Below are positions 47,005-64,000 of a stretch of 64,000 nt of DNA, one piece after another. Both the position numbers and the translations under genes were made by a program. The notes under the pieces are model-generated. The model saw only the letters and a program-made list of their open reading frames with translations. It ran no database searches and was not told the origin of the DNA. Every line of letters starts with the position of its first letter. Position 1 is the stretch's first letter. The stretch is from Trueperaceae bacterium (GTDB lineage: Bacteria > Deinococcota > Deinococci > Deinococcales > Trueperaceae), in the NCBI GenBank assembly GCA_965213925.1, contig OZ243927.1, positions 1,760,001 to 1,824,000 on the forward strand, in the 5' to 3' direction.

Positions 47005-48285
47005 ATGAAATACTTCTTGAACCTTTTGGGACCTGTGGGTAAGCTCACCCCCTTTATCCTCAGCCTCGTTCTGCTCGCCGCTTGCAGCAGCGTTCAGCCT
47101 GGGTTGCCAGCTACCCCGACGACAGATACCTATACTCACTCTTTGAGCGTCGACATTGACGCCTCGAGCCTCAAAGCAGAGGTCGAAGCGCGCTATGGCG
47201 GCGACGTTATCGTGTGGCGTCCCGAAGCGGGCTTCGCGGTTTTAGGACTGAGTGGAAAGAGCGCGCTCAGCACACAAGCTTTAGAGGGCGCGGTTATCGA
47301 ACCTAACCAGGACGAAGTCGCTGCGCCCGAAGCGGAGGTGGCGGCCTCGAGTGTGTGGGGTGGGGGAGAAAATGTTTGGTCCGGTGGGGAAAATGTTTGG
47401 TCCGGTGGAACTGACGCCATCTCAGAACCTACCCTGTCCCGGCAAAACGCCGATATTTGGTGGCAGGTCAACCTCGGCGGCGGTCTCGCATTAGCGCCGC
47501 GCAAAGGCTCGGGTGTCAAAGTTGCTGTGATCGACAGCGGCATCGACTTGCACCACCCTGCCTTTTCCAACCGCCTCGCCCCGCGTCACGAGTGGAAAGA
47601 CTTTGTCGACGGTGACACCTACCCTCAAGAGGAGCGCTCAGCGGAGGGCGAGAGCGGCAACTACGGTCACGGTACGGGCGTCGCGGGCATTGTTTTACAG
47701 GTGGCACCTAACGCGACGATTTTGCCCTTACGTGTGCTTGGCGCTGAAGGTATAGGGGATATCACCGACGTGGCGGCGGCGATAGACCACGCCCTCGCGT
47801 GGGGCGCGGACGTCATCAACCTCTCGCTAGGCACGAACGAGGACTCCGAGGTGCTCAACCGGATGCTCGCGCTGGCTGCCGAACGCAGAGTACTTATCAC
47901 CGCGTCGTCGGGCAATACGGGCGACGGCAACATTACCTATCCCGCTCGCAACGCTCGCGTCGGCGTAAAAGGAGGCGCGTACTTGCTGAGCGTCGGTAGC
48001 GTGAACGCCTACAACGCGCTTTCCACCTTCTCCACCTACGGCGAAGCGTTGGAGATGACCGCGCCCGGCGAATTCGTCTACACCGCTTTTCCCGATAACC
48101 GAGTCGGCTATTGGAGCGGCACGTCGTTCTCTGCCCCGATGGTGGCGGGCACCGTCGCCCTAGTTTTGGGGGAAGAAAGGGACGAAAAGGACGTGGCTAA
48201 AAAGTTGGACGAGCTTGTGAGAAACCACAGCTTGTATTACGTTCGTCTCAACGTCAGAGATTTTGTAGGCTGGGTCCTTGACTGA
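47005..48285 (+). CDS. S8 subtilisin-like serine peptidase, lipoprotein
   Basis: Lipobox LAAC; VIDSG, HGT.VAG and GTSFSAP triad; ATG 47005 after GAGGAG. Confidence 0.93.
   Translation: MKYFLNLLGPVGKLTPFILSLVLLAACSSVQPGLPATPTTDTYTHSLSVDIDASSLKAEVEARYGGDVIVWRPEAGFAVLGLSGKSALSTQALEGAVIEPNQDEVAAPEAEVAASSVWGGGENVWSGGENVWSGGTDAISEPTLSRQNADIWWQVNLGGGLALAPRKGSGVKVAVIDSGIDLHHPAFSNRLAPRHEWKDFVDGDTYPQEERSAEGESGNYGHGTGVAGIVLQVAPNATILPLRVLGAEGIGDITDVAAAIDHALAWGADVINLSLGTNEDSEVLNRMLALAAERRVLITASSGNTGDGNITYPARNARVGVKGGAYLLSVGSVNAYNALSTFSTYGEALEMTAPGEFVYTAFPDNRVGYWSGTSFSAPMVAGTVALVLGEERDEKDVAKKLDELVRNHSLYYVRLNVRDFVGWVLD
47352..47409 (+). repeat. 21-bp tandem repeat encoding VW(G/S)GGEN
   Basis: Protein reads VWGGGENVWSGGENVWSGG. 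Confidence 0.8.
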
Positions 48286-48309
48286 TCGGCTAAGCCGCCA
48301 CGCTTGCAT

Positions 48310-50130
48310 TTAGCGCTTGACCTGATCTTTGCCGCCACGCTTGGCCTCGTACATCTTGTCGTCCGCGAGGCTGAGCATCTTTTCGTAGTCGAGCACTCGA
48401 ATATCATCCGTAAGCCCTATGCTCGCGGTGACCTGCAGGTCAGGATGCACGCTCCCCCAGGGGTAGGTTCTAATAGCGCGCCAAATCCGCTCGCAGATGA
48501 TGCTGGCTTCGTCTGCCGAGGTTTCGGGGAAGTAGCCGACAAATTCCTCACCGCCGTAGCGAGCGACCGTATCGATTTCGCGCACGCTGTTATGGAGAAG
48601 CTGCGCAACCGCCCGGAGCACCTCGTCGCCAACACGATGTGAAAATCTGTCGTTGATCTTTTTGAAGTCGTCGAGGTCGCAGATCACGACGCTGAGGTTG
48701 AGTCCGAAGCGGCGCGCGCGGGCGAACTCCTGCGCGAGCTGGATGTCGAAGTGGCGGCGGTTATAGAGACCCGTCAGGGCGTCCTCTCGCGCTTGCTGCT
48801 CGAGCTGGCTTAGAAGCTGCGACTTTTGATGGTTAGCGCGCTGCAGCGACTCAGTTAGTACCCTGAGCCCCTCGTTCGCTTGTGCTAGCTCCACATTTCG
48901 AAGGCGATAGATTTCCGTTTCTTTCTCGGCTTGCTCGATTTCAAACTGGACGCGCAGACTTTGGAGCTTGAGGTCTGAACTTTCGTTAAAAACTTTGTCT
49001 TTTGCTTCGATGTAGCGTTGCAGGTGCTCGAGCGCTTCGCGAAATACCCCTTTACGCCAGTACACCTCGGCGAGCGTTTCGTGCGTTTTGTAAATAACAG
49101 CCTGACTGCTAATTTGGTGAGCATATGCTAATGCTTCGTGGAGTGATGCGGTAGCTTCATCGTAGCGTTCCTCCTCTGACCACACTTGCGCTAGGAAAAC
49201 CTGAGTTTGTGCCCGACCTTTTAAGTCACCCGCTTCTTCTTTGATAGCTAAACTCTGCTTTAGAAATGCTTCAGCTTCCCTAAATTGCGCTAGTTCAAGA
49301 TGGGTTTGTCCCAAATGATCAAGTACAAAACTTTCGCCTAAACGATTTTCTAAAGTGTCCATCTGTTTCAAGCTTTTATCGCCGTAAGTACGTGCTTGTT
49401 CATAGTTACCAAGCTTGAGATAAGTGCGACCGATGTTACACAGACTAAATGCTTGAGTATATCTTTCTTCCGCAGCCTCACTAATTGCTAAACACTGCAA
49501 AAAGTACTTGAGCGCTTCGGAGTAACGTTTACGCTCGTAATAGATTGTACCCACATTATGTAGCGCTTCAACCTCTCCTGTGCGGTCGTCCAGCTCTCTG
49601 AAGAGCCGTAGGCTCCGTAAGTGATAGTCTAGAGCGTTGGCATAGTCGCCTATAAAAGCGTAGATTGTACCAATATTATTAAGTGTTCCCGCTTCGCCTC
49701 GAGCGTCGTCCAATTCAGCACACAGCTTCTGCGCCTCTAAAAACACCTTGAGCGCCCCCAAGAGGTCGCCCGTATCGCCGTAAATAATACCCAGAGTATT
49801 AAGCGCTCGCTGCAACCCTTCTCTATCTTTAAGCTGTTCAAAAAAGGTGCGCGCCTCCACCACGTTTGCGAGGGCGTCCTCGAGTTGCGAGAGGCGCATC
49901 TGGCAGTAGCCCTTCGTGAGCAGGCTGTAAGCTAAGCCTTGTGTATGTCGCAAGTCTCTGGCTAGCGCGTGGGCTTCTTGGCTCAACTCTAACGCCCGCC
50001 TCGTATCGACACGTCGCAACTCCCAAGCTAGCTCGCTGAGGAGTTCCAGGCGAGCCGCCGAATTTTCGTTCGTGACTCGCGTGAGGTTGTCCTCTAAATT
50101 CTTGACGCGCTCGGCTTGTTCGGTGTTCAT
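48310..50130 (-). CDS. TPR-repeat diguanylate cyclase
   Basis: Multiple TPR repeats, DALTGLYNRR, RxxD I-site (REID), GGEEF. Start re-called at 50130. Confidence 0.93.
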   Translation of the reverse strand: MNTEQAERVKNLEDNLTRVTNENSAARLELLSELAWELRRVDTRRALELSQEAHALARDLRHTQGLAYSLLTKGYCQMRLSQLEDALANVVEARTFFEQLKDREGLQRALNTLGIIYGDTGDLLGALKVFLEAQKLCAELDDARGEAGTLNNIGTIYAFIGDYANALDYHLRSLRLFRELDDRTGEVEALHNVGTIYYERKRYSEALKYFLQCLAISEAAEERYTQAFSLCNIGRTYLKLGNYEQARTYGDKSLKQMDTLENRLGESFVLDHLGQTHLELAQFREAEAFLKQSLAIKEEAGDLKGRAQTQVFLAQVWSEEERYDEATASLHEALAYAHQISSQAVIYKTHETLAEVYWRKGVFREALEHLQRYIEAKDKVFNESSDLKLQSLRVQFEIEQAEKETEIYRLRNVELAQANEGLRVLTESLQRANHQKSQLLSQLEQQAREDALTGLYNRRHFDIQLAQEFARARRFGLNLSVVICDLDDFKKINDRFSHRVGDEVLRAVAQLLHNSVREIDTVARYGGEEFVGYFPETSADEASIICERIWRAIRTYPWGSVHPDLQVTASIGLTDDIRVLDYEKMLSLADDKMYEAKRGGKDQVKR

Positions 50131-50363
50131 GAAGTATGCATCGCCCCTCACTTTTAGTGTATCTCGCTTTTCTCGAGAATGAAAGTCCGCAAAAACCAAA
50201 CCCTCTAGGGGCGCTCTCGCTACTAAACTGAGGCAGAAAAGACGGACTCGTTTAAAGCCTGAAGTGAATAGGGTTCGACTTCCGTGGTGTGGTCGTCTGG
50301 TCTAAAAATGTCCTGCGTGACGACCTCGTCAAGCCTCCCCTAATTTATGATGTACCCCACCGC

Positions 50364-50420
50364 TTGACAGAGACGCGCGTCTTTACCTATACTGAGCTTA
50401 CCTTATTTATTAAGGTAAGC
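50364..50420 (+). promoter_or_regulatory. sigma70-type promoter plus palindromic operator of the lexA-like gene
   Basis: TTGACA-18 nt-TATACT followed by GCTTACCTTA-TTTAT-TAAGGTAAGC (perfect 10-bp inverted repeat). Confidence 0.8.
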
Positions 50421-50449
50421 ACGAGGCTAAAGAAGGAGACTGTGGAGCT

Positions 50450-51064
50450 ATGAGCCAGTTACCCAAGATGCAGCGCAAAGTTTACGAGCGAATCTGCGAG
50501 CATAAGTCGCGAACGGGCACCTGCCCGGAGCTTGCCGTTTTTGCGCGTGAGCTAAATATTCACTACGTGTCGCTCAAGCAGCATCTCGAGGCGCTCCACA
50601 AAAAGGGCTATCTGGTCTTCGAGAGCCGGGGCAGAGGGCAGTCGCCGAGGCTCGAGCTGCCCGCCAGAGCCACGGGCGTGCCCGTTTTAGGGAGCATTCC
50701 CGCAGGTCCACTCAGCGAGGCGTTAGCCGAGCCCGAGGGCTACTTGCCGCTCCACGACGGACAGAGCAACTTCGCGCTGCGGGTCTCGGGCGATTCGATG
50801 GCAGACCTTATTCAAGACGGCGACGTAGTGGTCTTCAAAAAGGGCGTCCCGATGCGCAGCGGCGAAATCTGCGCGGTGCGCGTCGGTAACAGCGAGGTCA
50901 CGTTGAAGTATCTCGACAAACTCGACCCGAAAACGGTCGCGCTGAGACCTCACAACCCGCAGTACCCGACGCTCTCCGTGGACGCGAGAGAGGTCCACAT
51001 CGAAGGGATTTACTTGGGTCTCGTGCGCGGCGAACTGCTCAGTTCGCTTTACGAGGAGGTGTGA
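50450..51064 (+). CDS. lexA: LexA-like self-cleaving repressor (wHTH plus S24 peptidase)
   Basis: HL.AL..KGYL winged helix, G.IPAG.L cleavage site, V.GDSM catalytic Ser, TLK catalytic Lys. Confidence 0.88.
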   Translation: MSQLPKMQRKVYERICEHKSRTGTCPELAVFARELNIHYVSLKQHLEALHKKGYLVFESRGRGQSPRLELPARATGVPVLGSIPAGPLSEALAEPEGYLPLHDGQSNFALRVSGDSMADLIQDGDVVVFKKGVPMRSGEICAVRVGNSEVTLKYLDKLDPKTVALRPHNPQYPTLSVDAREVHIEGIYLGLVRGELLSSLYEEV

Positions 51065-51078
51065 TTTTAGCGTCGTCA

Positions 51079-51114
51079 TTGAATCGCGCGAGTATTACCT
51101 TAAAGTGTTACGTA
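51079..51114 (+). promoter_or_regulatory. promoter overlapped by a second operator copy
   Basis: TTGAAT-16 nt-TAAAGT; TACCTTA-AAGTG-TTACGTA at 51096-51114. Confidence 0.6.
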
Positions 51115-51189
51115 CCGAATGAACGGCTCAGGAGCGTAACCAGATAATACCCGTTGCGAATGTAGAGATTCCTCTCAAAAGCAGATGAC

Positions 51190-51295
51190 CAAAGCAAAAG
51201 CCCGCGCCCCATCCGCCAAGAGTTGCGCGAGCCCACGCCTTGTCCGTCTAGCTCATACCCGTTTTCAGGCGGGACTAAAGGAGAACTAGCTCATG
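51190..51295 (-). ncRNA. putative ~100-nt cis-antisense RNA
   Basis: Minus-strand TTGACA at 51324-29 with a weak -10. Minus-strand terminator GCTCGCGC-loop(TTGGCG)-GCGCGGGC-TTTTGCTTT. Confidence 0.5.
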
Positions 51296-51661
51296 AACTA
51301 TCCTGCACGCATCTTTAGGGATTTGTCAAGTGTTTGGCAAAGGGACGCCGCGAGTCAGCGCGTCGACATCCTAGCCGCCGAACTCACCGCCTGCGTCGCC
51401 GCGCAAGGCACGCTCTGCTTAGGTCTCATCCGCGCTGAGGCGGTGCCTAAGTACTTCGGTCTGGTTTACCTCTTAGACGGCTACGGTATCTTGCTGCGCA
51501 AGCGTCACAGAAAAGAGGGGGGCGTGCTCGTTTTTGCCGAGGTCAAGCGAGAGGTCGCGTCCGAGTTTGCGGGCGCAGTCGTCACCGAGCGCACTTTAGC
51601 GCCTTCTAAAACTGCCACAACCACGGTTGAAGTCGCAAGAGAATTCGCGCACGCCGCGTAA
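51293..51661 (+). CDS. hypothetical protein, first gene of the operon downstream of lexA
   Basis: AAGGAG RBS; 11 nt from the next gene; no family recognised. Confidence 0.65.
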   Translation: MNYPARIFRDLSSVWQRDAASQRVDILAAELTACVAAQGTLCLGLIRAEAVPKYFGLVYLLDGYGILLRKRHRKEGGVLVFAEVKREVASEFAGAVVTERTLAPSKTATTTVEVAREFAHAA

Positions 51662-51672
51662 GGAGGGTTGAG

Positions 51673-52350
51673 ATGAATACGAGTACCGACCTGACCTGGG
51701 AAACACTTTTGGAGAAACTCGCGCGACCCTTCCCGGTGTCCTCGATTTACTGGCGAGCGGGCGTGGTTAGCCGCGACAAGAAGCGGGCGCAGGCGCTACC
51801 TTACGCTGAGCCGCGCGTGTACGAAGACCGCCTTAACGGAGTCTGTCCTGGTCTCTGGAGCGTCTCCTTCCGTCCTTGGGGCGAATCGCGCATCATCTGC
51901 GACCTCTCGATCGGCGAATTGACGCGCTCCTCTACAGGGGAGGAGAACGAGGGTTTCGCGCCCGGTACGGCGGCGGAGGCGCAGGCGTTTAAGCGCGCTT
52001 GCGTGAAGTTCGGTCTCGGTCGCTACCTCTACGACGTTCCGATCGTCTGGGTTCCTTACGACGAGAAGTCGCGGAAGCTCACCGAGACGCCGACCTTGCC
52101 TGAGAAGTTTTTGCCTCACGAGCAAAGCGCACCGCCCACCCTCTCCGAAGGACGCGCCACCGCCATGCACCGCGAGCTAGAGAAGTTGGGTCTCGTCAAG
52201 CCTGAGCAGTATAGGCTCGCCGCGCGTGTGCTCGGTCACGAGGTCGCGCAGTTCACCGCGCTCACCGAAGCCGAGGCGTTAGAGGTCTGGAACGTCGCCA
52301 AGCGTGCTCAGGTAGGGCAGGGCGGTCCGTCAGCGCAGCGAGCGGCGTGA
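51673..52350 (+). CDS. Rad52/Rad22-family (DdrA/Sak-like) single-strand annealing protein
   Basis: L..PF....W, RVYEDRLN.V, AFKRACVKFGLGRYLYD; GGAGG RBS. Confidence 0.9.
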   Translation: MNTSTDLTWETLLEKLARPFPVSSIYWRAGVVSRDKKRAQALPYAEPRVYEDRLNGVCPGLWSVSFRPWGESRIICDLSIGELTRSSTGEENEGFAPGTAAEAQAFKRACVKFGLGRYLYDVPIVWVPYDEKSRKLTETPTLPEKFLPHEQSAPPTLSEGRATAMHRELEKLGLVKPEQYRLAARVLGHEVAQFTALTEAEALEVWNVAKRAQVGQGGPSAQRAA

Positions 52351-52529
52351 CGAGCGCCGCCGTCCCTACCGCCACGGCTGAAACCGCTGAACGCGAACGC
52401 CTCTACCGCTGCCCCAAATGTAAACGCCGCGTGACGGTTTTGCTCGAGAACGTCGCCGTAAGCTGCAGTCGCTGTGGCCGGATGATGAAGCGCGTTGACG
52501 GTGGCGCTGAGCGAGTTCACACAGCTTAG
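52347..52529 (+). CDS. small zinc-ribbon protein
   Basis: CPKC..CSRC; GTGA overlap with the Rad52-like gene. Confidence 0.65.
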   Translation: MTSAAVPTATAETAERERLYRCPKCKRRVTVLLENVAVSCSRCGRMMKRVDGGAERVHTA

Positions 52530-52702
52530 TAGGCTTGAATAAGCTCTTCTTAGTTCGGCGAGTGACGTAGTTTTGAAAAGGGATAGGCTCGAGTTCGCGT
52601 TGAGACTCGAGCCTCTTCCAACCGCTCTCGAGCCAGGTGTACGCCCCTGCCCAACTGCTTTGTTTAGTTCTCTTAACTACGCGGCGCTGCCGAAAGGACG
52701 AT

Positions 52703-52960
52703 ATGAATACCGGGCTTACTCTCACAACCTGTCCGCATTGTGACGGTGAAGGAGGAGAAATGTACGCAGCCGGACCTGGCTACTATGCGCCTCACTCTGG
52801 CGGTTATCTTCCCTTCGAACAGACCGATATATGCGAGATATGCGAAGGCTCAGGTGAGGTAGAGGTGTGCGCCCACTGCTTAGAACCTTTAGACGTCTTG
52901 CACGGCGAAGAGGTATGTGGCTGCGCTGCACTCAGCGCAGCCGTGCGACAAGCTGCGTAA
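52703..52960 (+). CDS. small Cys-rich zinc-finger protein with DnaJ-like CxxCxGxG repeats
   Basis: CPHCDGEG, CEICEGSG, CAHC, CGC; AAGGA RBS before ATG 52703. Confidence 0.7.
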   Translation: MNTGLTLTTCPHCDGEGGEMYAAGPGYYAPHSGGYLPFEQTDICEICEGSGEVEVCAHCLEPLDVLHGEEVCGCAALSAAVRQAA

Positions 52961-52970
52961 AGAACTCGCG

Positions 52971-53828
52971 TTAGGGTGCGCGCTGCTTGAGTTGGTCGGA
53001 AACGTCTTGCGCAAGCTCGCGCCCTAGTTCTTCAGCCTCGCTCGCCTCGCCCGAAATCTCCGCTTGGATAACGAGGTCGCCCGCCATGTCGGTCACTGCG
53101 CCGAAGAGGTTCAAGTCGCCCTCCGAAGTGACGGTGGCAAGTGCGCCTAGCGCATGCGACGCGCTCCCTAGCGCCCTAGCGAAGCTCCGCTCGGCGCGGG
53201 CGCGGTCGAAGCTGGGGCGGTGCTGAAGGGTGTAGGCGAGATCGGTGGCGAGGTCGTCGTCTTCGTTGACGACCAAACCGAGCGACCCCTGCCCGGCAGC
53301 CGGGGTGAAGACGGCAGGCTCTAAAAGGACGTTGATGCGTTCTCTGCGCTCGAGCTGAAGCAGATGCGCGCTCGGCATCACGAGCGCGTTCACTTCGCCC
53401 GTAGCGAGCAGCGACAGCGTCACGTCAACGTCGCCGGAGACCGTCTTGACTTCGATATCCTTGCGGTTGGCGAGTAAGAAGGCGCGGTCGCGCTGGGTGC
53501 GAACGCCCACTACGCTACCTGCCGCTAGTGACGCTAAGTCCTCACCCGCGCGGTTGACTAGGGCGGCGCGGGGCTCGAGCCGCCTCGTCACAGCGGCGAG
53601 CATGAGCCCTTCGGGGAGGGTCGGAGGCAATCCCTCCAAGCTCTGCAGCGCAATATTGATGCGCCCGGTTGAAAGCGCATTCAGGAGGTTGGTTGCGCCG
53701 TTATCACCTTGCACAGTTTTCTGGATGATGTTGACGTCAGGCCAGCCCTCACTCAGTTCGGCGAGGACGCCGCGGGCTTGCGGCAGCGCCAAGACACCGC
53801 CCCGATTTCCTAAAACAATTCTAGGCAT
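52971..53828 (-). CDS. HemC-like protein lacking catalytic residues
   Basis: HemC-like motifs (G.RG..LAL.Q, PAAGQG.L, AERSF) but SLEG in place of SxKD and no GGC. Confidence 0.82.
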   Translation of the reverse strand: MPRIVLGNRGGVLALPQARGVLAELSEGWPDVNIIQKTVQGDNGATNLLNALSTGRINIALQSLEGLPPTLPEGLMLAAVTRRLEPRAALVNRAGEDLASLAAGSVVGVRTQRDRAFLLANRKDIEVKTVSGDVDVTLSLLATGEVNALVMPSAHLLQLERRERINVLLEPAVFTPAAGQGSLGLVVNEDDDLATDLAYTLQHRPSFDRARAERSFARALGSASHALGALATVTSEGDLNLFGAVTDMAGDLVIQAEISGEASEAEELGRELAQDVSDQLKQRAP

Positions 53829-54037
53829 GTGTTGGTTTCGTAGAGCGGTTTAAGGGTTGCTTCAATCTAGGCACGCTGCCAAGTACATAGTTAGACATAT
53901 GGTCGAACACACAGTATTTTACAGTAAATGCGTGGCGGGCGCTATAAAGACCGGACGGCGTCACCATCTCACCGACAACACATACTCGGCTACCTGTACT
54001 GGAGACGGCTTGAATAGCTTTTTCGAATTTTGGGCTG

Positions 54038-54314
54038 CTAGCCGATCCCTTCGATAATCACATCAGCGGTGAGCTGCGAGCTTGCTGGTGCGAACGTTGG
54101 CGCGCAGCCGTTTCTCGAAGGCGCTGTTATCTTGCTCGAGCCAGAAGGGAGTGCCCCGAGCTTAGAAAACTCGGCTAAGACTTCATCGACGCTCAAGCTG
54201 TTGGCCAGCAAATCCAAAATATCGACGACGCGAATGCGCTCATACGCGAATGCAGGGTCTGCCACCACACTGCTTAGGTTTGACGGCAATGCGGTCTATA
54301 ACGTAGGTGGTCAT
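54038..54314 (-). pseudogene. DUF433-family gene, frameshifted
   Basis: ATG 54314 reads MTTYVIDRIAVKPKQCGGRPCIR, then shifts to RIRVVDILDLLA.SLSVDEVLAEF. Confidence 0.75.
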
Positions 54315-54372
54315 GAATTTAGCATAGACGAAAGCGGTGCACCTAGACAGAGTTGGGGGGCGTCCTCTCGAG

Positions 54373-54702
54373 CTAGTTAGCTACACGTGGGTCGGATACC
54401 TGCCAGGCCATCTCTTGCTCTCGAGCAATCCGGTAAAAGACAGACTCCCCCGTTTTTAGTCGGAACTCGACGTAGCTGTAGTTACCGAGACGAAACGATC
54501 GGCTCTTGGTGATGCGCGTACCTGGATGATCAGTCCGAAACTGCTTCTTCGCTAGACAAGCGCCGCCAACACGGAAGAGGTAGAAGAGCCAGCTTAGAAT
54601 ACCAATAACGGCGGAAATAAAAATGTAAACGAGCGCGACGGCCGCGCCTCCGCCTGGGAAGATGATGTAGTCACCTACTTGCATAATAGAATTATCCGAC
54701 AT
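54373..54702 (-). CDS. small hypothetical membrane protein
   Basis: ATG 54702; one long hydrophobic segment. Confidence 0.45.
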   Translation of the reverse strand: MSDNSIMQVGDYIIFPGGGAAVALVYIFISAVIGILSWLFYLFRVGGACLAKKQFRTDHPGTRITKSRSFRLGNYSYVEFRLKTGESVFYRIAREQEMAWQVSDPRVAN

Positions 54703-54793
54703 CGCGAAGCGGAATTCTTTCAAAAGCTCACATCTCGTTATAGTTGCAAAGTATTTAACGCAAAGTTCGGGAGAGGAACACCTACAACCACCC

Positions 54794-55846
54794 TCAAAAC
54801 GCATACCGCACCTCACAATACGGCAACTTCTCAGCGAGGAGCGTCTTAAACTCTCGCACCCGCGCCCCCTTAAACCCGCGCCGATACCGCACATTCTTCC
54901 CGCCCATCTTCGACACCTTCGCCTCTTGGTTCTCGGGCGTCCAGAGCAGGTCTTCGGCCTGCGGGTGCCACCCCAAGTTGACCTCGTGCAACCCCTCGTT
55001 GTGCGTCAGGAAGATGACCTCGCACTTGAGCTGCGCCTTAGCCTCTTCGGAGAGCACGTCGTCCACCTCTTCAAGTAGCGCGGCGTAGTCCTCGAGCCAG
55101 CCCTCATAGAGGATGACCGGGCTAAAGTTGAGGTGCACCTCGTAGCCCGCCGCCACGAAGTCATCTACCGCCGCGATGCGCTCGCTCATAGGCGAAGTGC
55201 GCACGTCTACTGTCTTAGCGACTTTTTGCGGCATGAGCGAGAAGCGGATGCGGGTCTTGCGCTGCGGGTCGTAGTTCAAGAGGTCGCGGTTGACGTATTT
55301 GGTCGCGAAAGAGGCTTTAGCGTTATCGAGGTCGCAGAAGAGCGCCACGAGGTCGCGGACATTGTCCGAGATGAGCGCGTCTACCGAACAGTCGCTGTTC
55401 TCGCCGACGTCGTAGACCCAGTAGACGGGGTCGGTTTGGAGGGGCGGCTTAGGGGGCTGTTTGGCGGCGTGGCGCTGAATCGCTTTGCACACCGCGCCTA
55501 TATTCACAAAGGCGCTGATGGGGTTGGCGTACCCCTTGCGGCGCGGCACGTAGCAGTAGGCGCACGCCATCGCGCAGCCGTTCGCGGTTCCTGGCGCGAT
55601 GAAGTCGCCGCTTCGCCCGTTCTCGCGTACTGGGAGTGACTTGCGCACGCCCAAGACGAGCACGTCTCGCTTGACGCGCACCCAGTCGTCCACCGAGCCC
55701 GCATTGCCGTGCAAGCTGGGGATGTTCCAGTGGGAAGGTACTTCGATCTGTTCTGCGTCAGGAAAACGCGCTAGAATTTCCATGCCTCTAGGGTAGGCGG
55801 GGACAGTGGGCTCGAGATATATCTGCTTGACGTCGAGAAGATTCAG
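54794..55846 (-). CDS. spore photoproduct lyase family radical SAM protein, copy 2, probable CTG start
   Basis: GCAMACAYCY, GENSD, FATK, RFSL, YEVHLNFSP, YAF C-terminus; AGGAG upstream of CTG 55846. Confidence 0.9.
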   Translation of the reverse strand: MNLLDVKQIYLEPTVPAYPRGMEILARFPDAEQIEVPSHWNIPSLHGNAGSVDDWVRVKRDVLVLGVRKSLPVRENGRSGDFIAPGTANGCAMACAYCYVPRRKGYANPISAFVNIGAVCKAIQRHAAKQPPKPPLQTDPVYWVYDVGENSDCSVDALISDNVRDLVALFCDLDNAKASFATKYVNRDLLNYDPQRKTRIRFSLMPQKVAKTVDVRTSPMSERIAAVDDFVAAGYEVHLNFSPVILYEGWLEDYAALLEEVDDVLSEEAKAQLKCEVIFLTHNEGLHEVNLGWHPQAEDLLWTPENQEAKVSKMGGKNVRYRRGFKGARVREFKTLLAEKLPYCEVRYAF

Positions 55847-55913
55847 AGGGGTCTCCTAAACCAAAAGAAAAGAGGTGCCAGCCGCCAACAGCCGACACCT
55901 CGTGCGCATCTGC

Positions 55914-56990
55914 TTACGTCCAGTAAAGTACTTGCGCTTCGGGGAAACGCACCGCGATCTCCGTCTCGAAAAAGCCGCGCAGGGTCGTCATCGTGTCCTT
56001 CGTATAGACGAACTTCGTGCCGCCAAACTTGTTGCGCTTGACGCTGCGGTTCTCCTCGCTCAGGTCGAGGCTCGAGTTCGGATACCAACCCTCCAAGACC
56101 TCTTTCGAGCCGGGCGTGAAGCGGTGGCTGATCAGCTCGAAGGTGAGGTCAACGGGGAAGTCCAGGGTCTGCTCGATCTCGTCGAAGAGCGCAGTGTAGT
56201 GCTCGCGCCAACCCTCGATGGGCATAATCGGTGCGATGACCAAACCGACAGGGTAGCCCGCCTGGGCGAGCTTGCGGATGGCTCCTAAACGGGCGGAGAT
56301 GGAAGCGGTGCCGCCCTCGAGCCGCTTGCCAATCGGCTCTGCGTTGACCGACGCGCGGGCTCTCGTCTGCCCATTGTGCGGCAGGTCGAGCAAACCGTCC
56401 ACCGCGTCGAACTTACTGACGTAACGCAGTGAGCCGTCCGTGCGCGTGCCGAAGTACTTGATGCACTCGGACAAGCTGCCCGTGAGGTGCTCCAAACCCA
56501 AGGGGTCGGTGTAGCACGACACCTCGAAAGAGGTCGGACCATCCTCGTACTGCGCCAAGTGACCCAAAATCTCGGGCAGGTTGGCGTAGACACGGGTTAC
56601 GGGCGGACCGGAGAGCGAGCCCGCTAGGTAGCAGTACTGACAATGCGCAGGGCAACCTTTGGCGAGGTGGAACTGCCAGTCGGCGGAGGGCGGGATAGGC
56701 TGGAGCTTCATCATGCTGGGCGGCGCATTGACAACCGCCAGGGTCTGCTTGGCGAGGCGATAGGTCTCGCGCTCATCTTTGCCGCGCAAGCCCGTGACGC
56801 GGTTGCTAGGAAGTTCGGTGATGTCTAAACCCAAAGAGGTCATGCGTTCGTACATCTGCTGACCGAAAGGTTGCTCTAAAGCGTCCGGGGTGAAGAGCAC
56901 GCGCTTAGGGGTCCAGAGCTTGGGCTTTTGCTGGCGAGGAGCGGGACGCGAAACGGAAGAGGTCGGGCGGATAGGCTCGGCTGCAGGCAA
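55914..56990 (-). CDS. splB: spore photoproduct lyase family radical SAM protein, copy 1, TTG start
   Basis: GCPAHCQYCYL, FE.SC.TDPL, GYP.G..IAPI, HRFT, YWT C-terminus. Confidence 0.92.
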   Translation of the reverse strand: MPAAEPIRPTSSVSRPAPRQQKPKLWTPKRVLFTPDALEQPFGQQMYERMTSLGLDITELPSNRVTGLRGKDERETYRLAKQTLAVVNAPPSMMKLQPIPPSADWQFHLAKGCPAHCQYCYLAGSLSGPPVTRVYANLPEILGHLAQYEDGPTSFEVSCYTDPLGLEHLTGSLSECIKYFGTRTDGSLRYVSKFDAVDGLLDLPHNGQTRARASVNAEPIGKRLEGGTASISARLGAIRKLAQAGYPVGLVIAPIMPIEGWREHYTALFDEIEQTLDFPVDLTFELISHRFTPGSKEVLEGWYPNSSLDLSEENRSVKRNKFGGTKFVYTKDTMTTLRGFFETEIAVRFPEAQVLYWT

Positions 56991-57081
56991 AGAGGTCTCC
57001 TTCTTCGCGAGAAAGTTGGGTTGTCTAAAGGGGTAAAAAGGTAGTGGAGTTGCGCTTGAGGTCGCTAACTAACTTGAGTTT

Positions 57082-57110
57082 ATTGTACTCAATTTTAAGG
57101 TGAAAAGCAA
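57082..57110 (-). promoter_or_regulatory. promoter of the spl pair containing an operator-like half-site
   Basis: TTGCTT-17 nt-TACAAT; the spacer contains CACCTTAAAATTGAG. Confidence 0.55.
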
Positions 57111-57181
57111 GGTGCCTGAGTCACATTTTAAGCTGTGCAGGACGAGGAAAAGTCAATTTTTCTACTGGTCATGGGGAAGAG

Positions 57182-57670
57182 CTACACATTGTCCCGAGAA
57201 GGTGGAAGAATACGAGCTAGATCATCTTCAACATCTAATCCGTACATTACAGCAAGTACGCCAAGCCGTAAGCCTATGTCTGAACGCAACTTGCCGAGAG
57301 ATGTAAAGAATTTCCAGCTTCTAGGACCCCCATCAAAGCTACTACGGATAATCAATTGCCGTTGTCCCTCCTGAACGTCATCTAAAAACTCTCGACAAGC
57401 AGCTCGCATGACTCGCAGATGTTCAGCTAAATCCTCCTGATTCTGTAGGCCTTGAAGCGTATCAGTAAGGAACTCACGTATCATCATTACCGATTCCACA
57501 CAATGCTCTAGCACCTCGAGTGCGTAATCGTTGTAAAGTACGCGCCTATCTTCAAAGAACGCTATTATGCGTCGCGCAACTGTAATCTCAGGTTCTGAGG
57601 GCTCCCAAGAAACGCCGAAGATTGGAATGCTGAATCCCGTGATACGGCTCGCTATCTCCTTATAGTGCAT
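57182..57670 (-). CDS. uncharacterised protein (DUF6650-like)
   Basis: RITGFS.P.FGVSW..FFEDRRVLY recalled as this family; appears lower in GC. Confidence 0.65.
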   Translation of the reverse strand: MHYKEIASRITGFSIPIFGVSWEPSEPEITVARRIIAFFEDRRVLYNDYALEVLEHCVESVMMIREFLTDTLQGLQNQEDLAEHLRVMRAACREFLDDVQEGQRQLIIRSSFDGGPRSWKFFTSLGKLRSDIGLRLGVLAVMYGLDVEDDLARILPPSRDNV

Positions 57671-57743
57671 GGTTACTCTTATACCGTATAGCGCGGCAAA
57701 AACCCTTCATCAAACCTTTTCGCTCAACGCCTTCACACGTCAT

Positions 57744-58019
57744 TCAAGCACTTTTGGGTAGAGGCATATCATCAGGCTCAGCGAACGCAACCTCGTGGAT
57801 AGCGTTCCAGTCAATCACAGCAATCCAGATATTTTCATCAGTAGAAAACTGGACGCGCCCCTCGGTCTCTAAATCTTCGCTGTAGAGCGTGAGGCGCAGA
57901 CCCTCTTCTAAGGTAATGCGCTGCCGTGATAAGTCTTGCACCGTACCAACACAATTGAGGCGCAAACGACCGTTTGGGTCGGCGCTGTGAAAGTCGGCGT
58001 ATACACGGGGGGTGCTCAT
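57744..58019 (-). CDS. putative immunity/antitoxin protein
   Basis: 91 aa, acidic C-terminus, 12 nt downstream of the toxin-like gene. Confidence 0.55.
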   Translation of the reverse strand: MSTPRVYADFHSADPNGRLRLNCVGTVQDLSRQRITLEEGLRLTLYSEDLETEGRVQFSTDENIWIAVIDWNAIHEVAFAEPDDMPLPKSA

Positions 58020-58031
58020 AAAGCGAGTATA

Positions 58032-58364
58032 TCACCTCTCTATTCGCGCTGGATTAGGCTGCGTAGGCGTAAGGAGACGGCTGATTTGCTCAGGTACTAA
58101 CCCTGTGAGGGTAGCGTGATAAGGGCTTCTGCCGGAGGTGCGTACGACATCGCCCCCTAGACTCCGAACTTCGCCGACAGTCGTTACGCCTACTTGACCA
58201 TGAGGAAGGGTCTTTGCCAACTCCAGCATAGAAATATCATCCGCGCACTCAACGGAAATACCTGTGACACCACTTGGGTGCGTTCCGGTTGCTCTAGCGA
58301 TATCTTCAGGGCGGTTACGCCCACCTCTTACGACGAGCGCTTCATCAGGAATGTCGTGTTGCAC
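58032..58364 (-). CDS. stand-alone polymorphic-toxin-like domain
   Basis: LVVRGG..GISV..P.G.VGVTTVG.VR..GG.V..P.H pattern resembling RHS C-terminal domains. Confidence 0.5.
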   Translation of the reverse strand: MQHDIPDEALVVRGGRNRPEDIARATGTHPSGVTGISVECADDISMLELAKTLPHGQVGVTTVGEVRSLGGDVVRTSGRSPYHATLTGLVPEQISRLLTPTQPNPARIER

Positions 58365-58408
58365 CGAACGACTTTAACATTGAGGAGCGCAATAGAGCCT
58401 AAAACGGT

Positions 58409-60313
<1,905 letters not shown>

Positions 60314-60420
60314 AAGGTTTAGTTTACCTCTTGTTTACGTTCAACCTCCTAAAGCCAGGAGTCACGATGTGTCGCAATGGGGTAGTCCGTGAATTTTCGT
60401 GCTGACCCCTGTCTACACCG

Positions 60421-60693
60421 TTACTCCAAGAGCTTCTCGAGCCGGGTCATCACCGCTTCGATGTCGTCCCTCGCGTGCCCCAGACCGCTCATGAGCCGCC
60501 AAATATTCTGTTCGTCGCTCGAGTTGGGGTCGTACAATTCGCGCATCTGCTGCATCAAAAAAGAGGCGAGCACGTTCCTAAAGCTCTGCGTTTTATCGCC
60601 GCTCTTTTCCATATCGAGAAACTGATGGACGAGAAACTCGTCGGGGTAGGCTTCGCTCGCCTTTTTGATAATTTCGTCTAAGCTTTTGGACAT
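60421..60693 (-). CDS. hypothetical helical protein
   Basis: ATG 60693 preceded by GAGG; no family recognised. Confidence 0.6.
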   Translation of the reverse strand: MSKSLDEIIKKASEAYPDEFLVHQFLDMEKSGDKTQSFRNVLASFLMQQMRELYDPNSSDEQNIWRLMSGLGHARDDIEAVMTRLEKLLE

Positions 60694-60832
60694 CGCGCCT
60701 CGCTTCGGCTCAGTGTACTGAAAAATGAGAGCCTCGCTAGGATAAATAGGGCGGTTGTACTTCCGTTCTTCCTCATCTGTCCTAGTGGGGTGAGTCAGCG
60801 TGAGGTGAGTCAGCACCTCGAGCCTTACGTTC

Positions 60833-62251
60833 TTACTTTATAAGCGCACCAAGACGCACCTTCGCCGCTTGGTAGCTCTTCTTCGCGTCCACAATAGGTG
60901 ACGGATAGTCCCGCCCAATAACGCAGCCCAGCATCTCTTGTAAGAGGGGGGGCGTTTTATGCGGCTCGGCGAGGTAAGGCGTCGGTAACGCGCGGAGTTC
61001 GGGGACGTAGCGGCGGATAAACGCGCCCGTCGGGTCGCGCTCTTGGGCTTGCTTGACGGGATTATAGATGCGTAAAGTGCCGCGTCCCGTCGTCCCGGCT
61101 TGCATCTGATGTTGCGACCAGTGGATGCCCGGCTCCATGTCCAAAAAGTGCTTCGCTGTAAAAATCCCGACCTCGCGCCAGTGGAGTCCTAAGTGATGCG
61201 TCGCGAAGGAGACGAGCATCGCCCGCATCCGAAAGTTGATCCAGCCGCCCCTATGCAACGCCCGCATACAAGCGTCTACGAGCGGATAGCCCGTCCTCCC
61301 GGCGCACCAAGCGTCGAAGAGGTCTGGGTTATGCGTGTTGTCCAAGAGGTCGAACCTGGGGTCTATGTTGTCGAACTCGAGCCCCGGATTCGACTCCAAC
61401 TTCTGGATAAAGTGGCAGCGCCACCGCAGGCGCGACTGGAAAGAGGTCAAAGAACGCAGCCAGCGCCAGTCGGCGTCAGCGCCCTCGAGCTTCAAGACTT
61501 CCAGCGCGTCCAACTGCTTTGTAGCTGTCTGATAGACCTCTCGCGTGGACAGGTTGCCGAACGACAGATACGGTCCCAACTGACTGCACGCGCGCTGCGC
61601 TCTCTCCGGGCTCGACATTTCGCGGTAGTAGCTGCGCCCCCTATAGGCGAGAAAGGTGCGGAGTTCGCCTCTCGCCTGCGTTTCGCCGCCTAGCCGCGCT
61701 TCGTTTTTCGTACTCGGCGGTAAGCCTAAATCTACCGGCGTGCGAATCGCTTCGGCGGGAACCTCTTTCACTGCGCTGATATGTAAAGGCGTCGGCGCAA
61801 GCCGTTCTCTCATCTGCCGCCGCCACGTGTCGCCCCAGCCGCGCCTATCTTTAAGCCCTCTCGTGATGCCAGGTTGCGGCGTCTCTGCCCAGCGCACGCC
61901 CCGCGCTTTTGTCCACGCCTTGACCCGCTTGTCGCGGCGGTACGTCAGCGCGTTGCCCGTCTCCTCGTGACTCCAGAGGGTGAAGGGACCGAGCTGCGCG
62001 TGGAGCGTCTCTAAAACTTGCGTCACCTCGCCGACGCGGTAGGTCAACCTGCCGCCAACGTCGCTGAGCTTCGTGTCTAAGTCTAAGAGCGACTGGTTGA
62101 TAAATTCCAGGTGTGAAGCGTCGACCTCTTCGTTGTAGAGTTCGGGTTCGTAAACGTAGAGACACAAGGTAGGTCCACGCCGCGCCGCCTCGAAAAGAGG
62201 CGCGTGGTCGCTCAGACGCAAATCTCGCTTGAACCAGACGACGTGAAGCAC
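60833..62251 (-). CDS. DNA photolyase/cryptochrome family flavoprotein
   Basis: VWFKRDLR..DH, S.LGPYL.FG, G.TGYP.VDA.MR, GWINFRMR, RIYNP..Q. Confidence 0.94.
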   Translation of the reverse strand: MLHVVWFKRDLRLSDHAPLFEAARRGPTLCLYVYEPELYNEEVDASHLEFINQSLLDLDTKLSDVGGRLTYRVGEVTQVLETLHAQLGPFTLWSHEETGNALTYRRDKRVKAWTKARGVRWAETPQPGITRGLKDRRGWGDTWRRQMRERLAPTPLHISAVKEVPAEAIRTPVDLGLPPSTKNEARLGGETQARGELRTFLAYRGRSYYREMSSPERAQRACSQLGPYLSFGNLSTREVYQTATKQLDALEVLKLEGADADWRWLRSLTSFQSRLRWRCHFIQKLESNPGLEFDNIDPRFDLLDNTHNPDLFDAWCAGRTGYPLVDACMRALHRGGWINFRMRAMLVSFATHHLGLHWREVGIFTAKHFLDMEPGIHWSQHQMQAGTTGRGTLRIYNPVKQAQERDPTGAFIRRYVPELRALPTPYLAEPHKTPPLLQEMLGCVIGRDYPSPIVDAKKSYQAAKVRLGALIK

Positions 62252-62257
62252 GATACT

Positions 62258-62280
62258 AGAATACCTTAAATTTTAAGTAT
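62258..62280 (-). promoter_or_regulatory. leaderless -10 box (TATTCT) overlapped by an operator-like site
   Basis: TACCTTA-AATTT-TAAGTAT at 62262-62280; -10 is 6 nt from the GTG start. Confidence 0.55.
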
Positions 62281-62327
62281 TGTGGGTAAGAGGTGGTGCA
62301 CACGTCGGAATTCGAACGGCGTTCGCT

Positions 62328-63260
62328 CTAGCTTTGCGGGGCTAGAAACATCTCGATGGTTTCCCTGTTCGTTTCGATCAAGGCGCGCTGTTCGGGCCAA
62401 AACATCGGCGGGAGGACGTCTAAGTCGTGCCACTCGAGGCTGTACGCATGTCCTTCGTCACTTGGTACTCCCTCGACTTGCTCCGTGGAAAAGAGAAAAT
62501 AATGCGTCACCGTCCAGCGCTTCTTGTTGTACGTCAGCCGCTCGCGAACGCCGAGCTTGATGACCATGTGGAGGTCATTGATACCAGCTTCTTCCGCGAT
62601 CTCGCGCCTAGCCGCCTCCAGCAAATCCTCGCCCGCTTCCACCCCGCCCTTCGGCAAAATAACGCGGCCTAGCCCCGCCTCGCGCACGAGCGCGACCTTT
62701 AAGCGCTCCCCTTCGGCGCGGACCACCACGCCGCCCGCTGCGACGCGCTTGTACACACCCTCAGGACGCTCGTACCAACTCGCGTCGATTTCTGCATCTT
62801 GCGGTACGCTTTCGGGCTCATCGGAGAGAACCATCAGCACGTCGCTTGCCGGGTCAGCGACCTCGAAGCCGAAGCGGGCGTAGAAGGGTTCTAACCCACC
62901 CGTCGCGACGAGCGTCACATCCAAAGACCGACCTCTTGCGAAGTCTAAAAGCCGCGCCATCACGCCCGACGCGACGCCCTTTTTCCAACTGTCGGGGCGC
63001 GTCATCACGTCCAAAATCTGCGCGGTGTAGGGGTCGGCGAGGACGCGCCCGAAGCCGACGAGCTGCTCGCCTGACCAAGCGGCGACGTAGAGGGAAGAGG
63101 TCTGCAGCGTCGCCCTCGTTTTCGCTTCGGTGCGCTCGCTCCCGGCGTTCCACTCCACGGCGGCATAGAGGTCGTTCAAGAGGTCGGGGGTCAACCGCTC
63201 GTCGTTCACCACGAAGCGCACGTCCCTCTCCACCCTCTTTCCCGTTTGTCGCTGCGGCAA
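62328..63260 (-). CDS. GNAT acetyltransferase-NUDIX hydrolase fusion
   Basis: N-terminal LVGFGR..DV..P..KKGVA..FY.RFGF; C-terminal Nudix box GGVEAGEDLLEAARREIAEEAG. Confidence 0.85.
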   Translation of the reverse strand: MPQRQTGKRVERDVRFVVNDERLTPDLLNDLYAAVEWNAGSERTEAKTRATLQTSSLYVAAWSGEQLVGFGRVLADPYTAQILDVMTRPDSWKKGVASGVMARLLDFARGRSLDVTLVATGGLEPFYARFGFEVADPASDVLMVLSDEPESVPQDAEIDASWYERPEGVYKRVAAGGVVVRAEGERLKVALVREAGLGRVILPKGGVEAGEDLLEAARREIAEEAGINDLHMVIKLGVRERLTYNKKRWTVTHYFLFSTEQVEGVPSDEGHAYSLEWHDLDVLPPMFWPEQRALIETNRETIEMFLAPQS

Positions 63261-63261
63261 C

Positions 63262-64000
63262 TTAAAAAGCCGCCCGCACCACGCCGCCGTCCACGCGCAA
63301 AGCTGCGCCGTTCGTCGCGGACGAGAGCGGGCTGCAGACGTACGCGACTAGGTTCGCGACCTCTTCGATCTCGATAAAGCGCTTTAAGAGCGAGGTCGGG
63401 CGCTCCGTTTCGAAAAACTGCTTTTCCATCTCGTCCCAGCTGATGCCCTGACTCTCCGCCATGCCGCTGATGAATTCCTCGATGCCTTCCGAGCGCGTCG
63501 GACCGGGCAGCACCGAGTTGACGGTTACGCCTGTTTCGACGGTGGTTTCCGCCAGACCTCTCGCCACCGCGATTTGCGCCGTTTTGGTCACGCCGTAGTG
63601 GATCATCTCTTCGGGGATGTGAATCCCGGACTCGGACGAGACGAACACGATGCGTCCCCAGCCGCGCGCTTTCATCTTGGGCAGATAGAAGCGCGAGAGC
63701 CGCACGCCGGAGAGCACGTTGAGCTTATAGAAGTCCAACCATTCGTCATCCGAGATGTCGGCGAAGGGTTTAGGGTCGAACATGCCGACGTTGTTGACTA
63801 GGATATCGACGTCAGGGTGCGCCTCGGTGACGCTCTGTACGCCCTCCGCGGACGAGAGGTCGGCGGCTACGCCCATGACCTCGCCTAGGTTGCCCTCCGG
63901 CGCGCCCTGCTTAATCTTCTCGGTCGCTTCGTCCACACGCTCCTGCGTGCGCCCGTTGACGACGACCGACGCGCCTTCTTTCGCGAGCGCGTCGGCGACG
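63262..64000 (-). CDS. SDR-family oxidoreductase, 5' end beyond the window
   Basis: VNGR, DILVNNVG, YGVTK, VDGG; frame open to the edge. Confidence 0.93.
   Translation of the reverse strand, partial: VADALAKEGASVVVNGRTQERVDEATEKIKQGAPEGNLGEVMGVAADLSSAEGVQSVTEAHPDVDILVNNVGMFDPKPFADISDDEWLDFYKLNVLSGVRLSRFYLPKMKARGWGRIVFVSSESGIHIPEEMIHYGVTKTAQIAVARGLAETTVETGVTVNSVLPGPTRSEGIEEFISGMAESQGISWDEMEKQFFETERPTSLLKRFIEIEEVANLVAYVCSPLSSATNGAALRVDGGVVRAAF

Follow-up and report, generated by a model that had tools for sequence, protein, structure and literature searches.

What controls the genes behind a perfect palindrome that lies in front of lexA in a genome of the Trueperaceae (Deinococcota), and how far does this control reach beyond lexA itself? 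The palindrome belongs to a window, by which we mean the whole 64-kb stretch of DNA analysed here, and an original prediction made on this window had read it as the operator of a LexA-type repressor, shared with genes for a Rad52-like annealing protein, for spore photoproduct (SP) lyases and for a photolyase. From comparative sequence analysis, we consider it very likely that the LexA encoded at 50450-51064 has as its operator TACCTTA-N5-TAAGGTA, whose spacer in the strong sites consists of A and T alone, and that this operator serves a small SOS regulon in one clade of the Trueperaceae. The lexA palindrome, the regulon and the photolyase link of the original prediction stood up to the analysis, while its site at 51096 proved weak and its site in front of the SP-lyase gene spl fell away.

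The palindrome, LexA and the copies of the box

The genome of the window (G000; 4.75 Mb, 58% GC, contigs C1 and C2) was compared with a genome of the same genus (G063) and with five relatives found via LexA similarity (G001-G005); L numbers denote fetched loci. The elements at the head of lexA are the following.

50364..50393, plus strand: promoter-like site of lexA, TTGACA-18 nt-TATACT, in agreement with the consensus at 11 of 12 positions
50396..50420, unstranded: predicted LexA operator, a perfect palindrome with the core TACCTTA-N5-TAAGGTA at 50399-50417, 32.6 bits
50450..51064, plus strand: lexA, 204 aa, winged helix and S24 self-cleaving domain (PF01726, PF00717)

The two arms of the inverted repeat (50396-50405 and 50411-50420) are 10 nt each, 100% complementary and 5 nt apart. 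As had been claimed, the palindrome follows directly upon the -10 element of lexA: it begins 3 nt past this hexamer and ends 30 nt ahead of the lexA ATG, and the promoter-like site in question was the sole match of its kind in 50200-52500. Likewise, all four stretches that the original prediction had singled out were found in the sequence where it had placed them. On the other side of the box, at a distance of 200 nt, a gene for a TPR-GGDEF diguanylate cyclase (48310-50199, minus strand) diverges from lexA, and the same neighbour is present in G063.

The protein itself carries the LexA-type winged-helix DNA-binding domain at residues 1-56 (PF01726, 30.1 bits with a cut-off of 23.7) and the S24 domain (PF00717, 84.6 bits), and its residues 3-194 align with E. 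coli LexA structures. Furthermore, the AG, GMSM (GxSM) and TVK (TxK) motifs of E. coli LexA line up with its cleavage site, A85-G86, and with the catalytic residues Ser116 and Lys153. Its nearest relatives, at 65-80% identity, are found in Truepera and Trueperaceae assemblies.

Taken by itself the window is only suggestive, as it contains three matches to the core pattern at up to 3 mismatches versus a shuffle mean of 0.68, and 5 of 100 shuffles also reach three; the weight is carried by the genome-wide and cross-genome counts. G000 has 6 perfect copies of TACCTTA-N5-TAAGGTA, 3 with one mismatch and 8 with two, compared with 0/0/0 for the reversed pattern and 0/0/4 for an arm-swapped pattern, and the spacers of all 6 perfect sites consist of A and T only. 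A position weight matrix of 23 columns and 29.6 bits, built from 8 sites of G000 and 9 from relatives, returned 8 sites at 30.4-38.4 bits, then a gap, and then a remainder at no more than 17.5 bits, whereas the reversed-genome control topped out at 13.4 bits. Since the 8 strongest sites are also training sites of the matrix, their independent measure is given by the mismatch counts. Each of these sites stands upstream of the start of an open reading frame (ORF), at a distance of no more than 350 nt, and at a threshold of 11.6 bits there were 19 real matches versus 1 in the reversed genome.

The box upstream of lexA is kept in five of five LexA-derived relatives while the flanks diverge, and it is also present in G063 (31.5 bits). 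At up to 2 mismatches, the five relatives have 15, 8, 21, 16 and 3 sites as opposed to 0, 0, 3, 0 and 0 for the reversed pattern, and G063 has 13 versus 4 in the control. For 57 sites we retrieved the surrounding DNA and grouped the ORFs that follow them across genomes: lexA stood behind a site in 6 of 6 genomes, recA, a GemA-like gene and a Crp-family gene in 5 each, an ATP-binding cassette (ABC) exporter in 4 and the photolyase in 3, with extra members in some relatives, namely uvrB (3 genomes), uvrA, an ImuB-like gene, a MATE transporter, phosphofructokinase and glyoxalase-family genes. By its content, this is a predicted SOS-type set. The lexA site scores 27.6-32.6 bits in all 6 genomes, and a weaker recA site (19.6 bits) is found in G005. 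Two of the checks that had been named for the operator, a genome-wide matrix scan and a look upstream of orthologous lexA genes, came out in its favour, with 8 strong sites standing apart and a box before lexA in every one of the 6 genomes, which supports by computation that LexA would regulate its own gene through the palindrome.

Members of the predicted regulon

A regulon therefore appears to exist as had been proposed, and it is larger than could be seen from the window. One member, recA (PF00154, E 3.6e-139), lies 427 kb from lexA, and a perfect copy of the box is found 33 nt ahead of the gene. The further strong sites of G000 precede a GemA-like ORF, an ORF of 127 aa outside the known families, a glyoxalase/bleomycin-resistance-like ORF, a Crp/Fnr-family regulator, an MsbA-like ABC exporter and an ORF of 68 aa. 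At recA, the photolyase and the GemA-like gene the box is located 10-40 nt before the start codon, and in front of the Crp-family gene it takes up the spacer between the -35 and -10 hexamers of a promoter-like TTGACA-17-TAAAAT. The regulon of G000 is thus predicted to comprise lexA (which probably shares one transcript with orf122 and the DdrA-like Rad52 gene), recA, the GemA-like gene, the Crp/Fnr-family gene and the MsbA-like exporter, and in addition the glyoxalase/bleomycin-resistance-like gene, the 127-aa ORF, the 68-aa ORF ahead of the only dnaE and, through a weakened box, the photolyase. The phosphofructokinase gene of G000 has no site.

Several of these loci deserve a closer description. 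The GemA-like protein of 148 aa (C1:1087452-1087898; L002 3452-3898) matches the phage Mu GemA family PF06252 with an E value of 2.5e-5, below the cut-off, and a strong box is found 3-21 nt before its start in 5 genomes; the gene is a predicted conserved SOS member. In the locus C1:3739397-3741673 (L005 3397-6000), a perfect box is flanked on both sides by extra TACCTTA half-sites 12 nt apart; behind it come the 68-aa ORF and then the sole DnaE-family gene of G000, an arrangement that recurs in G063. The open frame of this DnaE-family gene spans 1709 aa, which is long enough to suggest an intein. Moreover, G001, G002 and G003 have two recA copies each, at 74-87% identity to the query.

Downstream of lexA the window contains a conserved cluster, for which a box at the promoter of a Rad52-like operon had been proposed.

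51096..51114, unstranded: weak candidate second box, TACCTTAAAGTGTTACGTA (TACCTTA-N5-TTACGTA), 2 mismatches, 11.6 bits, rank 18, 32 nt after the lexA stop
51200..51236, plus strand: hairpin with the invariant loop CATCCGCCAAGA in the lexA-orf122 spacer, shared by G000, G063, G001, G003 and G004
51293..51661, plus strand: orf122, a conserved gene between lexA and the Rad52-like gene, with a 118-aa ORF as its positional counterpart in G003 and G001
51673..52350, plus strand: gene for a Rad52/DdrA-like single-strand annealing protein, in third place within the lexA cluster, PF04098 25.7 bits (cut-off 20.3)

In G063 the 51096 site has no conserved counterpart, the 40 nt around it being different there, and no second site occurs in G001, G003 or G004, so that its function is doubtful and a separate promoter box for the Rad52-like operon was rejected. 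The association itself persists in another form, as the order lexA, an ORF of 118-122 aa and the Rad52-like gene is the same in five genomes (G000, G063, G001, G003 and G004), and no terminator-like site was found after lexA. Conserved gene order, and not the 51096 site, would hence be the firmer link between lexA and the Rad52-like gene, which probably belongs to the regulon through operon linkage. Relatives of this protein include one of Truepera radiovictrix named Rad52/22 double-strand break repair protein. Its homologues in the genus Deinococcus (32-40% identity) have a site that looks like RDRM, the motif of the radiation/desiccation response, 24-25 nt upstream in 11 of 13 loci, a position that matches the RDRM site listed for Deinococcus ddrA in Table 4 of PMC1978522.

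For orf122 there was no Pfam or NCBIfam match, and the ESM Atlas gave best scores of 0.77 for orf122 and 0.79 for the GemA-like protein, which are leads only and, for orf122, not informative. The stem of the hairpin changes on both sides across genomes (CGCGC/GCGCG versus CCCGC/GCGGG), and the leader before orf122 (51137-51290) is about 95% identical between G000 and G063 versus about 84% for neighbouring coding DNA; the fold of a 166-nt leader has a z score of -1.45, and an Rfam scan of 48000-64000 returned no match at E of 1 or less. A second Rad52-like gene of 253 aa (C1:2635767-2637555; L030 946-2734) adjoins the gene for an ArdC-like/M78 protein, and the two are probably part of a mobile element.

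At the other end of the window, the photolyase gene was found with a degenerate copy of the box.

60833..62251, minus strand: photolyase/cryptochrome-family gene, 472 aa, PF03441 217 bits, PF00875 74.9 bits
62262..62280, unstranded: decayed LexA box TACCTTAAATTTTAAGTAT, 3 mismatches, 17.5 bits, rank 9 in G000, 11 nt before the photolyase start

The photolyase and DASH-cryptochrome models that the gene matches all score below their cut-offs. Rank 9 makes the site the first one below the 8 strong sites of G000, and the orthologous photolyase genes have boxes of 31.0 bits in G063, 12 nt from the start, and of 32.0 bits in G003, 10 nt from it. In the alignment with G063, one arm of the window copy is perfect and the other has two substitutions. 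As judged from this alignment, 62262-62280 is a weakened operator, and the photolyase link is supported because the site appears to be the decayed form of a box that two relatives have, in full strength, at the matching place; the connection made by the original prediction was in this way upheld by boxes outside the window.

A more restricted circuit is possible, if not probable, in which only the boxes at lexA and recA work, the matches at the photolyase and at 51096 are remnants or products of chance, and no other repair gene of the window outside the lexA operon is regulated by damage. The loss of two positions in one arm relative to G063, with 17.5 instead of about 31 bits, would fit such a circuit, as would the absence of conservation at 51096. 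Furthermore, the sites next in strength (17.2 and 15.0 bits) adjoin unrelated genes, none of the 22 intermediate sites examined (ranks 10-31 and one on C2) adjoins a recognisable repair gene, and 9 of 20 intermediate sites fall inside mechanical ORFs of at least 150 aa. Against it, the photolyase site occupies the exact orthologous position of two strong sites, and both intermediate sites of the window flank repair genes, where the chance of an intermediate site within the 228-nt lexA-orf122 spacer, estimated from 23 sites in 4.75 Mb, is about 1 in 1000.

The SP-lyase genes, in contrast to the photolyase, could not be retained.

57086..57102, unstranded: rejected half-site upstream of spl, at most 0.7 bits in every register (57084-57102)

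Only one arm matches at this position, and TTAAGGTG alone occurs 45 times in G000. The spl orthologues in G001 and G003 (loci L027 and L028) gave best upstream scores of 3.2 and 1.9 bits. With a half-site not above chance and nothing at the orthologues, the spl genes were rejected as regulon members, and with them the promoter site that had been proposed. In their own right, they form a tandem pair of different SP-lyase-family radical SAM genes (54794-55783 and 55914-56990, both on the minus strand) in a non-sporulating lineage: one reaches 579.9 bits with the model TIGR03886 'spore photoproduct lyase family protein' and so clears the cut-off of 437.55, and the other is closest to the SP lyase model TIGR04070 (323.9 bits, below its cut-off of 400).

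Which protein binds the box

LexA is the best candidate for the protein that binds the box, since it has a strong site of its own in every genome, recA is part of the regulon, the boxes lie on or just after core promoter elements, and the type of box tracks the recognition helix. As to the latter, the presumed recognition helix of LexA opens with HYVSL[KR]QH in all 6 genomes with the TACCTTA box, while G078 LexA has DYTTLRQH and a TACCCAAAT-T-ATTTGGGTA palindrome of the TACCCAA type before lexA, and LexA of a Thermus-like genus has RPQTLRQH together with TACCTGTT-N4-AACAGGTA before lexA. Computation gave the site statistics, the places of the promoters, the conservation from genome to genome, the gene content and the finding that the cleavage residues are intact; the mechanism that we propose runs as follows. 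A LexA dimer would occupy boxes overlapping core promoters and thereby block transcription, and upon DNA damage active RecA would stimulate self-cleavage of LexA at A85-G86 by means of Ser116 and Lys153, releasing the genes from repression.

A number of observations weigh against LexA as the binder, or against the regulon as drawn here. First, gene calls are mechanical ORFs throughout, and the NCBI equivalog model TIGR00498 scores LexA at 107.5 bits, just below its cut-off of 110.95, although the aligned part covers 1-193 of 203 positions and the marginal miss is best read as a divergent but complete LexA. Second, the box is missing where it might be expected: the recA locus of G004 has no site, of the two recA copies of G003 one (L020) lacks the box and the other (L015) has it, and the classical SOS genes uvrA and uvrB of G000 are without a site. 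Third, the scanner found promoter-like hexamers at lexA and the Crp-family gene only, and not at recA or the photolyase. Finally, the correlation between helix and box is confounded by phylogeny, as it comprises three clades with three states, and in G078 the variant TACCCAA-N5-TTGGGTA gave 10 matches at up to 2 mismatches versus 4 in the control, the lexA site alone being perfect.

A further objection comes from the Crp/Fnr-family regulator of 222 aa (C1:594679-595347). A palindrome with two arms of 5-7 nt also suits a Crp-family dimer, and a box stands in the promoter of the Crp-family gene in 5 genomes, the gene in G002 even sharing a single site with the divergent lexA, so that this protein could be the binder; its own gene, lexA, recA and the photolyase would then be its targets, and LexA would bind elsewhere. 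We regard this as improbable. The site of the Crp-family gene is weak in G001 and G003 (17.0 bits) in comparison with the lexA site, which keeps its strength in all 6 genomes, the boxes, on core promoter elements or directly behind them, are placed as repressor sites would be, and recA, uvrA, uvrB, the ImuB-like gene and the photolyase make up an SOS set. In addition, related TACCT...AGGTA palindromes travel with lexA in the Thermus-like genus. An equivalence of the Crp-family gene with Deinococcus ddrI was considered as well and dropped: an RDRM-like site (up to 1 mismatch) was present at 0 of 13 loci of its homologues in the genus Deinococcus, no better than in control segments, which leaves the regulator without an independent tie to damage control.

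That the box is instead bound by a DdrO-like XRE repressor, or by a second S24 protein (HTH_3 and S24, 251 aa, near C1:3909000), in a switch of Deinococcus or prophage style is highly unlikely: a second S24 repressor-like protein is indeed encoded in G000, and DdrO/IrrE rather than LexA run recA and ddrA in Deinococcus according to the relevant passages of PMC1978522 and PMC8072749, but the second S24 gene has none of the best 70 listed box sites in its vicinity, the box is unlike RDRM, whose pattern TTMYGYNNNNNRCRKAA is not enriched in G000 (8 matches versus 14 for the reversed pattern), and the PF06114 search, which detects the M78 family in a D. radiodurans control, found no IrrE-type metalloprotease in G000 but a single match, an ArdC-like protein of 297 aa, DdrO itself not having been searched for. 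Relatives carry assorted M78 genes. The remark of the original prediction that Deinococcus mainly relies on IrrE/DdrO was apt, as this is a sister family, but a Deinococcus-style DdrO/IrrE circuit is unlikely in G000 itself.

The Trueperaceae box among LexA and DdrO systems

The SOS box of E. coli is CTGT-N8-ACAG and that of Bacillus GAAC-N4-GTTC, and other lineages have LexA boxes such as GTTC-N7-GTTC in alphaproteobacteria and TTAC-N3-GTAA in Bdellovibrio. The strong sites of G000 all read TACCTTA-N5-TAAGGTA and, set against these consensus sequences, belong to neither the E. coli nor the Bacillus type, just as had been noticed from the window. In these lineages, too, LexA has a box of its own while lexA and recA stay at the core of the regulon, and none of these consensus sequences equals the box described here. 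With the LexA/RecA system of E. coli there is agreement in protein architecture, cleavage site, Ser/Lys dyad, autoregulation, the presence of recA in the regulon, a palindrome overlapping the promoter, and conserved arm cores spaced about 12 nt from centre to centre. However, the E. coli arm is TACTGTA instead of TACCTTA, its recognition helix starts with SPNAAEEH instead of HYVSLKQH, and the regulon of G000 is small and lacks uvrA and uvrB. In functional terms the predicted circuit is an ordinary LexA/RecA SOS response, set apart by its box and by the place where this box occurs.

Closer at hand, the Thermus-like genus belongs to the same phylum, its LexA is 43-45% identical, and its box, again about 30 nt before lexA, has the outer TACCT...AGGTA in common, but is 20 nt long rather than 19 and has the inner arm GTTAT rather than TAAAT. 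In this genus lexA heads an ImuB-like cassette (loci L038-L045) and is present in 8 of 21 sampled genomes, sometimes twice. Among the matches listed at up to 2 mismatches, a list that leaves 58 others aside, all adjoin a lexA copy, so that control looks confined to the cassette, with no chromosomal regulon containing recA. The lexA-ImuB unit of this genus resembles a mobile mutagenesis cassette that brings along an operator of its own.

In Deinococcus, as far as the sections of PMC1978522 and PMC8072749 on this subject go, LexA does not control recA; it controls a mutagenesis cassette instead, and IrrE/DdrO control recA and other repair genes (PMC8072749). The targets overlap with those of the Trueperaceae box (recA, uvrA, uvrB and the Rad52-like ddrA homologue), and in both cases a palindromic repressor site is placed at the promoter. 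Yet the site is a different one (RDRM, TTMYGY-N5-RCRKAA), and so is the repressor, a member of the XRE family that is cut by a metalloprotease. Truepera is not mentioned in this 2021 review (PMC8072749). In the literature covered by our search we found no LexA box for Trueperaceae; subscription journals, RegPrecise and CollecTF were outside this search, and a prior description is possible.

From this comparison a scenario arises that we hold to be close to an even matter, if slightly short of probable: the Trueperaceae may keep the ancestral arrangement of the phylum, in which LexA with TACCTTA-N5-TAAGGTA runs recA, excision repair, the photolyase and, by operon linkage, the ddrA-like gene, whereas Deinococcus would have handed its repair genes over to DdrO/IrrE, with LexA cut back to a mutagenesis cassette. 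If this were true, Trueperaceae and Deinococcus would make a natural pair that shows the states before and after one master regulator gave way to another, and the series of boxes TACCTGTT, TACCCAA and TACCTTA, together with the corresponding changes where the helix begins, would offer a manageable example of co-evolution between repressor and operator.

For the biology of this family, the box offers a testable LexA motif in a radiation-resistant lineage for which none was found in the literature searched, and a point of comparison for how a regulon changes its master regulator. The GemA-like gene, orf122 and the ORFs of 127 and 68 aa would be likely candidates for damage-inducible genes, and the predicted circuit as a whole may be of interest both for the evolution of the SOS response and for radiation resistance in the Deinococcota.

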